DNA of 64,000 nt from Mobula hypostoma (GCF_963921235.1 NC_086097.1:162070001-162134000), one strand, 5' to 3'. Positions 56,101-61,008 are shown, numbered from the stretch's first letter. Notes: generated from the sequence alone by a model not told the origin. Numbers and translations are program-made.

Positions 56101-59100
56101 TATAGCAGCGCTGGTTTTAAATCCATCTTGTAGAGTTCCGACGTCACAGATCTGTAACGAACCCGTTGATCCCGGATTGGTTTACTGAAATCCTCCACGA
56201 ATCGGAACTTAAGATCCAAAAAATCAACGAAACCTTTAGATCGAACGAATCGAAACAGTTTCTCCTTGTCTTGAAAGTAATGAAAACGTAAAATGACATG
56301 TCTAGGTTTATCTGACCTAGGCGAGTATGATGGAACTCTGTGAACACGATCCAATAACGGTGGTTGGTCAGGAAATACAGTAGGAAATGCATCTTTTAAA
56401 AGTTGAGAAAAATACTTCATAGGGTTATCGGATTCAACAGCTTCACGCACCCCAATCATTCGAAGATTCTGCCGTCGCATTCTAGATTCTAAGTCAGAGT
56501 TTTTAAAGGTCAGAAAGTCGAGTTTCTTCTTCATTACATTAGTTGTTTCTTCGATTTTCTCCATCTTGAGCTCACTTTGTTGCGTGGATTTTTGAAGATC
56601 AGATATAGCCGACCGATGTTCCATAATAGATATCTGTATCTTCTCGATTGAATCGGCAACTTTCTGGAAACTAGTTGAAATTTCCGCACGAATCAGCTCC
56701 GTAACAGAGATTGAAATTTCCCTTTGAATTAGCTCCGATATAGCTTTCAAAGTCACCGGTGGTTCAGTCGGAGGGAAATCAGTACCTTTCGGTCTAACCG
56801 GAGGTTTGCCATCCTTCCCGTTTTTTCCATTCTTAGACATAGCAGACCTTAAACGCATCCAATTATCGGAGAGCCCAATTTATTTCAAAGTATTGTAAAA
56901 GTTGATGCCTTAATGGTTAATTAAAATATAGCTGATCATAAGAAGAAAAACTCAGAGGTAATGGAGCGAATCAAGACCGCGACTTCACTCCATGAGCGCT
57001 ACCGAAGTCCCCCGGCCTTCTCATGGCTACTTCTGGCTCTCCTAATTTCATTCTTAAACTCCTTCCTGCTAGCCTTATAATCTTCTAGATTCCTGTCATT
57101 ACCTAGTTTTTTGAACATTTCGTAAGCTCCTCTTTTCTTCTTGACTAGATTTAAGACAGCCTTTGTGCACCATGGATCTTGTACCCTACCATGCTTTCCA
57201 TGTCTCATTGGAAAGTACCTCCTCAGAACCCCACGCAAATATCCCCTGAACATTTGCCACATTTCTTCCATACATTTCACTGAGAACATCTGTTTCCAAT
57301 TTATGCTTCCAAGTTCCTGCCTGATAGCCTGATATTTCCCCTTACTCCAATTAAACGTTTCCCTAACTTGTCTATTCCTTTCCCTCTCCAATCCTATGAC
57401 GAAGGAGATAGAATTGTGATCACTATCCCCAAAATGCTCTCCCGCTGAGAGACCTGACACCTGACCAGGTTCATTTCCCAATACCAGATCAAATACAGCC
57501 TCTCCTCTTGTAGGCTTATGTACATATTGTGTCAAGAAACCTTCCTGAACACACCTAACAAACTCCACCCCATCTAAACCCCTCACTCTAGGGAGATGCC
57601 AATCAATACTTGGGAAATGAAAATCTCCAACCACAACAACTCTGTTATTATTACTCCTTTCCAGAATCTGTCTCCCTATCTGCCCCTTGATGTCCCTGTT
57701 ACTGTTGGGTGGTCTATAAAAAAACACCCAGTAGAGTTATTGAACCCTTCCTATTCCTAACTTCCACCATCAGAGACTCCGTAGATGACCCCTCCATGAC
57801 TTCCTCCTTTTCTGCAGCCGTGACACTACCTCTGACCAACAGTGCCACACCGCCACCTCTTTTGCCTCCCTCCCTGTCCTTTCTGAAACATCTATAACCT
57901 GGCATTTGAAGTAGCCATTCCTGCCCCTGAGCCACCCAAGTCTCTGTATTGGCCACAATATCATAGCTCCAAGTGCTGATCCACACTCTAAGCTCATCCA
58001 CTTTATTCATGATACTCCTCACTTTAAAATAGACACATTTCAAGCCATCGGACAGAGCGCATCCCTGCTCTATCACTTGCCTATCCTCCCTTTCACACTG
58101 TCTCCAAGCTTTCTCTATTTTTGAACCAACCCCCCCTTCCCTCCATCACTTCAGCTCGGTTCCCACCCTGCAACAATTCTAGTTTAAACTCTCCCCAATA
58201 GCCAGCAAGCCTTCCCGCCAGAATACTTGTTCCCCTTGGATTCAAGTGCAACCTCTCCTTTTTGTACAGGTCACGCCTGCCCCAGAAGAGGTCCCAATGA
58301 TCCAGAAATCTGAATGCCTGCTCCCTGCTCCAATCCCTCAGCCACGCATTTATCCTCCACCTCATTCTATTCCTATACCTACTGTCACATGGCACTAATG
58401 TGACAGTGAGTATAGTCTCTAATGTCTCTCCCACTACCCAGGCATCCAACATACTCTTAAAAAAACACTTGTCCCTCACATCTCCTTTGAAATTATCCCC
58501 CTCACCTTAAATGCATGCCCTCTAGTTTTAGACATTTCAACCCTGAGAAAAAGAACATGAATTCCAAGGCAAGCAACAGGAATTCTGCAGATGCTGGAAA
58601 TTCAAGCAACACACATAAAAGTTGCTGGTGAACGCAGCAGGCTAAGCAGCATCTCTAGGAAGAGGTGCAGTCGACGTTTCAGGCCGAGACCCTTCGTCAG
58701 GACTAACTGAAGGAAGAGTGAGTAAGGGATTTGAAAGTTGGAGGGGGAGGGGGAGATCCAAAATGATAGGAGAAGACAGGAGGGGGAAGGATGGAGCCAA
58801 GAGCTGGACAGGTGATAGGCAAAAGGGGATACGAGAGGATCATGGGACAGGAGGTCCGGGAAGAAAGACAAGTGGGGGGGACCCAGAGGATGGGCAAGGG
58901 GTATATTCAGAGGGACAGAGGGAGAAAAAGGAGAGTGAGAGAAAGAATGTGTGTATAAAAATAAGTAACAGATGGGGTACGAGGGAGAGGTGGGGCATTA
59001 GCGGAAGTTAGAGAAGTACTTCCGCTAATGCCCCACCTCCCCCTCGTACCCCATCTGTTACTTATTTTTATGCACACATTCTTTCCCTCACTCTCCTTTT

Positions 59101-61008: not shown

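Follow-up and report, generated by a model that had tools for sequence, protein, structure and literature searches.

Minimal type I hammerhead ribozymes have been described in metazoan Penelope-like elements (PLEs), where the monomer was inactive and the dimer had low activity (Cervera and de la Pena 2014, PMC4209133; this and the other publications cited here were available in part, and what is said of them holds for the accessible portions). The G10.1-C11.1 pair of PLE minimal hammerheads is highly conserved, not invariant. A coral Neptune appears in the table of PMC4209133, and two of its three supplements contain no shark or ray term. A preprint that sampled one chondrichthyan genome found activity in 1/9 frog dimers (10.64898/2026.07.22.740005), and a search of literature that largely lacked subscription journals returned no paper on shark or ray PLE hammerheads. 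For the anole Poseidon element PAc, studied in vitro, cleavage needed protein while insertion did not need cleavage, and RNA-seq ends at the cleavage site were absent; its protein is predicted to be a dimer, extends both target strands and has two start sites that bound the tail (PMC11167929).

The sequence analysed here, referred to as the window, is a stretch of 64,000 nucleotides from Mobula hypostoma. It carries two mutually identical 36-nt minimal hammerheads, one on each strand (Table 1), just as an earlier note on this DNA had described. A descriptor made up of a 4-bp stem I, CUGANGA, a stem II of at least 3 bp, GAAA, an N15.2-N16.2 pair and UH matched only these two copies over the 64 kb, while 200 dinucleotide shuffles of the window gave a mean of 0.01 matches (at least one match in 2/200, two matches in 0/200). 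The predicted cut of the + copy falls at 59355/59356, and its helix III is the palindrome ACGU at 59351-59354 (positions 15.1-16.1). Stem II had previously been drawn as AGG paired with CCU; a better register, which the relatives described below support, places a bulged A before GGGU/GCCU closing a CUCG loop, with G10.1 facing U11.1. An Rfam scan of 54000-64000 returned no hammerhead among 47 matches with E up to 10, so the Rfam check that the earlier note had proposed misses the motif. The scan also gave microRNA-like matches at 58.97-59.06 kb, which is the palindrome centre, all of them under gathering scores.

The translation of 60918-61007 agreed with focal adhesion kinase (FAK) in 30/30 residues and the + strand has further FAK exons from about 2070 onward, which bears out that the host gene is PTK2 and that the + copy lies in sense orientation. 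The host intron spans 37191-60918 (23.7 kb). Compared with the minimal hammerheads of PMC4209133, the ray motif is alike in its pLTR location, its short stem I (4-5 bp), the bulge between 9 and 10.1, the palindromic 15.2-16.2 without a loop 3, its presence in Neptune elements and its occurrence as opposite-strand pairs 100-700 bp apart, but it differs in its short stem II (4 bp, tetraloop) and in having G10.1-U11.1 for G-C.

Table 1. Coordinates of the hammerheads, the insertions that carry them and neighbouring features, counted from the first nucleotide of the window
Feature	Coordinates	Strand	Basis or remark
Right hammerhead	59324-59359	+	Sequence; register from relatives and from a family variant at the equivalent left-arm position 58681
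Left hammerhead	58669-58704	-	Antisense to PTK2; descriptor match
Right copy, stem I	59324-27 with 59356-59	+	
Right copy, core C3-A9	59328-34	+	
Right copy, bulged A between 9 and 10.1	59335	+	
Right copy, stem II, G10.1-U11.1	59336-39 with 59344-47	+	
Right copy, G12-A15.1	59348-51	+	
Right copy, C15.2-G16.2-U16.1-C17	59352-55	+	
Left target-site duplication, 13 bp	58557-58569	+	Identical to 59412-59424
Left arm: final ORF codons FSNFR-stop, 3' UTR/pLTR, ribozyme, tail	58570-59017	-	
Tail (3' extension, left arm alone)	58570-58616	-	Arm alignment
Right arm: ORF stop, 3' UTR/pLTR, ribozyme, short 3' end	59018-59411	+	
Right target-site duplication, 13 bp	59412-59424	+	Identical to 58557-58569
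Second palindromic insertion, same family, 204 bp	53375-53578	.	14-bp target duplication at 53361 and 53579
PTK2 (FAK) kinase-domain exon	60919-61009	+	FAK match; downstream of host intron
Older family copy: broken RT-thumb/linker/GIY-YIG remnant, then pLTR with decayed ribozyme	61758-62830	+	

The two hammerheads had been presented as two copies of a terminal repeat; the motifs themselves stand but their independence does not, as they are the arms of a single 842-bp head-to-head insertion (58570-59411) bracketed by a 13-bp target-site duplication. The arms (58614-59008 against 59018-59414) are identical at 382/395 aligned positions, with 13 substitutions, 12 of them transitions (58614-59414), plus indels, and the 9-nt spacer between them (59009-59017) is supplied by the left arm. 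They are identical across the ribozyme, whose 4 CpGs are kept and which lies ~300 nt past the ORF stop in each arm (59026-59028 in the right arm). The tail takes the left arm 47 nt past the end of the right arm and ~36 nt past the family's usual short end, and the short 3' end of the right arm overlaps the target duplication by 3 nt. Among the matches listed, loose ends of contigs cluster at 58569/58578 and 58606, around the left-arm tail.

Inverted pLTR, one-sided tail and target duplication make up the typical Penelope layout and are shared with endonuclease-positive PLEs, although the 58.6-kb insertion, unlike the Neptune elements of that group (PMC8557442), holds the 3' end alone. Inverted arms, a one-arm tail, a short duplication and a palindromic junction are likewise found in the head-to-head insertions of Pen2a_Av (PMC3846280), from which the ray insertions differ in consisting of two truncated arms without an ORF body and in their duplications of 13-16 bp, compared with 8-10 bp in Pen2a_Av. 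With anole PAc the insertion shares a pLTR hammerhead and two 3' ends one tail-length apart, but PAc belongs to another clade and inverted insertions are not discussed in the accessible part of PMC11167929. A non-LTR retrozyme was considered and rejected, the copies being inverted and not tandem head-to-tail.

The C-terminus of the ray protein P0001 matched both arms in tblastn searches, with 87% identity between its residues 365-417 and the left arm and 89% between residues 368-413 and the right arm; translation showed that the left arm starts with FSNFR-stop, and each arm is, judged by sequence, the ORF end and 3' pLTR of a very high-copy Neptune-type PLE. In P0001, RT motifs occur together with a CX4CX2C linker and a GIY-YIG match (E 0.0005), the GIY-YIG matches of the ray relatives having Pfam scores under the curated cut-offs, while Pfam found 0 families in four broken window remnants. 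Most of its full-length relatives are proteins of about 750-1000 aa that contain RT, and relatives that match the arms and the window remnants have RT followed by a C-terminal GIY-YIG endonuclease in one ORF. The coding remnant at 61.8-62.8 kb is 58-69% identical to seven Mobula hypostoma / Hypanus sabinus proteins. The CX2-5CXXC linker reads CKWNKCFIC in this remnant and CKRNKCYTC in P0001, with three cysteines invariant in an alignment, and points to a Neptune placement, which is an assignment by motifs; Nematis has the same linker.

Only the 3' end of the element is present at the insertion, and an intact ORF is absent throughout the 64 kb, which contain about fifteen older family fragments. 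The family is clearly very abundant: more than 140,000 contigs per DNA run align to one arm in the ray sequencing runs, and summed depth, which is not copy number, is ~10 million over the ribozyme and ~11 in unique flank. The ray protein models P0003, P0004, P0006 and P0073, named as kinase-domain, mucin, chitinase-domain and adapter host genes, contain the element's RT or endonuclease sequence and are probably annotation chimeras or exonised copies.

Several other repeats were seen in the window. An older head-to-head palindrome of the same superfamily (6010-6205) is centred in ribozyme stem II; its target duplication candidate is weak and A-rich, and it was left out of the five insertions counted below. 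The centre lies inside the ribozyme but off the cut site in 2/3 window palindromes. Two short decayed pLTR ends stand in tandem at 10202-10300 (-), the downstream one appearing to start within ~3 nt of the predicted cut, which is a single decayed case. Nested PLE remnants of opposite orientation, among them pieces of RT and endonuclease, occupy 19027-20837 and have one short and one tailed end; a target duplication was sought in this complex (19-20.5 kb) and not found, and it was excluded from the count. An unrelated MITE-like palindrome of 228 bp with 87% arm identity was found at 26401-26628, shorter palindromes at 34131-34191 and 11429-11497, and long AT-rich repeat copies, 86-92% identical and L1/Tx1-type LINE-like by eye, at 39326-40825, 46633-47793 and 50950-53785, one of them being the target of the 53.4-kb insertion.

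Target duplications were sought in 10 hand-picked loci, encoding relatives of the element, that have inverted pairs. PLE arms were bracketed by duplications of 13-16 bp in three of them (L002 16 bp, L041 13 bp, L059 13 bp), one had an 8 bp duplication around another repeat, and six had none. Five target-duplicated two-arm insertions were thus available, namely those at 58.6 kb and 53.4 kb and the three at L002, L041 and L059. The tail (36-64 nt) sits on one arm and the short end on the other in 5/5; each arm has sequence absent from the other in 4/5 (53.4 kb, L002, L041, L059), and L002, L041 and L059 carry more than 1 kb of ORF on the short arm. The palindrome at 53.4 kb is centred inside the ribozyme and consequently has no complete hammerhead. 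Its tail is on the left arm, its spacer (53492-53497) comes from the right, short arm, its junction shows 3-nt microhomology, and its empty site is found at 47587-47600 in a paralogous repeat within the window.

In the four insertions whose tailed arm lacks upstream sequence that its partner has, neither arm can be a plain copy of the other. The palindrome at 58.6 kb most likely arose from cDNA priming at both target-strand nicks during insertion. The element protein would nick both target strands 13 nt apart at the 58.6-kb site, one cDNA would start from each nick, one of them at the tail site and the other at the short site, and the two cDNA ends would then be joined, forming the palindrome at insertion. 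Both cDNAs probably came from one RNA or one source subfamily, because the arms are mutual nearest neighbours in 2/3 relative insertions. I tentatively extend this to head-to-head PLE insertions in general, which may, at somewhat below even confidence, be the footprint of twin target-primed reverse transcription by a dimeric protein, with nicks 13-16 nt apart and a cDNA begun at each of the two start sites that bound the tail, so that every two-arm insertion would have one tailed and one short arm. A search for papers on twin priming in Penelope elements, in literature largely without subscription journals, found none.

Alternatively, the palindrome may have formed by self-priming, in which a fold-back strand is copied and the endonuclease trims the ends unequally; as an account of the palindrome-forming step this is a serious possibility, which I nevertheless rather doubt. 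Head-to-head PLE palindromes have been read this way in print (PMC3846280), the idea agrees with a tail that results from endonuclease resolution (PMC8557442), and a 3-bp fold-back stem is present at the 53.4-kb centre, where the arms also have common alleles missing from the 58.6-kb copy. Nearest-neighbour arms in the relatives are what one template predicts, but near-identical arms are also expected from one template read twice. The 58.6-kb insertion alone is also compatible with single-cDNA fold-back, as its tail and spacer are on the same arm; inversion of the spacer after insertion is possible. What weighs against self-priming are the 4/5 insertions in which the tailed arm is missing upstream sequence found on its partner, since a target-primed cDNA that folds back cannot place unique sequence on both arms, unless, in a variant of the idea, a longer antisense strand primes itself and is then trimmed. 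Moreover, both tail ends are starts of reverse transcription in vitro, and both target strands are extended there (PMC11167929).

A further candidate, in which each arm was copied from a different RNA, was unsupported given the nearest-neighbour arms of the relatives; a coupling of two template RNAs through the ACGU palindrome was dropped along with it. At least 3 of the 13 arm differences have both alleles common in the family.

The ribozyme itself was compared over 80 metagenome loci that encode relatives of the element. The descriptor gave 18 sense and 2 antisense matches, compared with 0.1 in shuffles. Thirteen of the sense matches lie 95-301 nt past the ORF end, 4 are upstream in 5' pLTR position and 1 is at a locus without a called ORF end, while both antisense matches sit in inverted 5' arms. 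All 20 have the bulged A, G10.1-C11.1 and a zero helix III loop, features that the descriptor did not require. A search for the core only, with no stem requirement, found a sense match in 21/35 eligible loci (13 of the 21 represent one family), an antisense match in 4/35 and no match in 14/35; stem II was completely paired in 19/21 core-only matches. Two-sided changes were seen at 7/8 pairs of the 18 aligned motifs and the covariation score was reached in 0/500 shuffles, in a set that is partly circular since it was chosen by a descriptor demanding 3 pairs per stem. The expectation that core and stems would be conserved or covary was thereby upheld among the relatives, while covariation among the 8 distinct window copies alone was not above shuffle level (122/500 reach it).

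C stands at 11.1 in 17/18 aligned motifs, the family register being G10.1-C11.1 plus the bulged A. In four runs C made up 20%, 29%, 21% and 75% of the summed depth at this position, where the 58.6-kb copy has U, and U accounted for about 80% of depth in run X1 (young ray subfamily). Among the matches listed, contigs of three DNA-type runs have loose-end clusters at the ribozyme edges 58668 and 58704, which suggests that older subfamilies retain similarity exactly there. The 24 loose-end entries listed, which come from contigs and so do not reflect RNA ends, include no cluster of 5' ends at the cut site. The exact DNA pattern had 0 matches in metagenome contigs, and no relative was confirmed in viral contigs, which gave 53 candidate stretches. 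On these comparisons the motif is the published PLE minimal hammerhead, and the earlier label of a chondrichthyan-type family has to be given up, since distant Neptune relatives from metagenomes carry the same zero-loop motif after the ORF.

Ribozyme copies that have A in place of G12, and should therefore be inactive by prediction, were seen at 556-595 (+) of the window and ~130 nt past the ORF end at L070 and L071. Three short contigs have terminal direct repeats (L025:1-340/3783-3954, L029:1-325/3838-4122, L036:1-357/3152-3509), an intact minimal hammerhead and a nearly complete PLE ORF; they have the look of young elements whose tandem or circular units were collapsed.

Folding of 58450-59550 paired all ribozyme bases with the opposite arm at a probability of 1.0 on either strand, and pairing to the other arm was still complete in a transcript ending at 59365, just past the ribozyme. 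The predicted fold of the whole insertion reached -832 kcal/mol, from nearest-neighbour folding that takes no account of proteins or core tertiary contacts. For the isolated ribozyme, the double-hammerhead was predicted at -11.5 kcal/mol, the best inactive dimer at -30.3 and the monomer hairpin at -11.0 each. The inverted second copy cannot be the dimer partner because it is antisense, and the window contains no intact sense partner, its other sense copies being truncated or core-altered. An action on the PTK2 pre-mRNA, which the earlier note implied, therefore did not hold up in the folding predictions: given full predicted pairing to an antisense arm that is transcribed earlier and no intact sense partner, cleavage of this pre-mRNA is unlikely, and the ribozyme is likely inert toward the host transcript. 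Taken together, the two motifs are very probably mirror-image arms of a Neptune-type 3'-end insertion, bearing conserved minimal hammerheads that are likely inert, held as they are, by prediction, within a 400-bp hairpin. This 400-bp, near-perfect RNA hairpin in the PTK2 intron (58614-59414) is presumably a likely substrate for A-to-I editing, as a prediction. In a tandem transcript of the parent element the ribozyme would cut weakly after GUC, and then only if two copies pair via the self-complementary ACGU or if protein helps, as published for the class.

Whether cleavage is what maintains the motif is a separate matter, and it is conceivable, if unlikely, that it is kept for a non-cleavage role, a signal for RNA pairing or protein binding for instance, with cleavage being incidental. 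Even in dimers, cutting by published minimal hammerheads is weak (PMC4209133), cleavage was seen in only one of the nine frog dimer elements (10.64898/2026.07.22.740005), insertion in vitro was unaffected by catalytic mutants (PMC11167929) and Naiad PLEs thrive without the motif (PMC8557442). The gap between the double-hammerhead and the inactive dimer in the folding energies points the same way, as does the spread of a young ray subfamily with U at 11.1. Against such a role, distant families differ in their stems yet retain a cleavable UH triplet and the catalytic residues, as selection on catalysis predicts, and the anole motif does cut in the presence of protein (PMC11167929).

Still less can be said for the view that the + copy, active or domesticated, cleaves PTK2 pre-mRNA in the manner of the amniote intronic hammerheads, which I consider very improbable. 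RECK and other genes have conserved intronic hammerheads (PMC6155905), and the ray copy resembles these in being type I, in sense orientation and in a vertebrate intron; its core is intact, and the arms are identical across the ribozyme with the 4 CpGs kept. At 13 differences in 395 positions, however, a 36-nt identity is often expected by chance, and the amniote hammerheads are single-locus and conserved across species (PMC6155905), whereas the ray copy belongs to a young high-copy insertion, one among very many copies of its element. It lacks helix III, the window offers it no intact sense partner, it has G-U where 17/18 aligned motifs have G10.1-C11.1, and it is predicted to be sequestered by full pairing with the antisense arm, transcribed earlier, in a fold that is not monomer-competent.

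That the palindrome is an assembly artefact or a DNA-transposon MITE is hardly credible: chimeric reads or MITEs can yield long perfect inverted repeats, and none of the contigs placed there spans the stretch, but the arms differ at 13 positions plus indels, the ends are unequal, a 13-bp duplication is present, each arm starts with a retroelement ORF end, the sister palindrome at 53.4 kb has an empty-site paralog within the window, and three unrelated contigs show the same layout.

As originally posed, the finding is ordinary, because the ribozyme is a known and very common part of PLEs, and it came to lie in an intron as a by-product of a high-copy retroelement. The origin of the inverted terminal repeats and tails of PLEs is still an open question in print (PMC3846280, PMC8557442). 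If true, twin priming would bring the inverted pLTR and the tail under one mechanism, from rays to invertebrates, with no need for self-priming, and this ray family, whose copy number is very high and whose target duplications are sharp, could discriminate both-strand priming from fold-back self-priming genome-wide.
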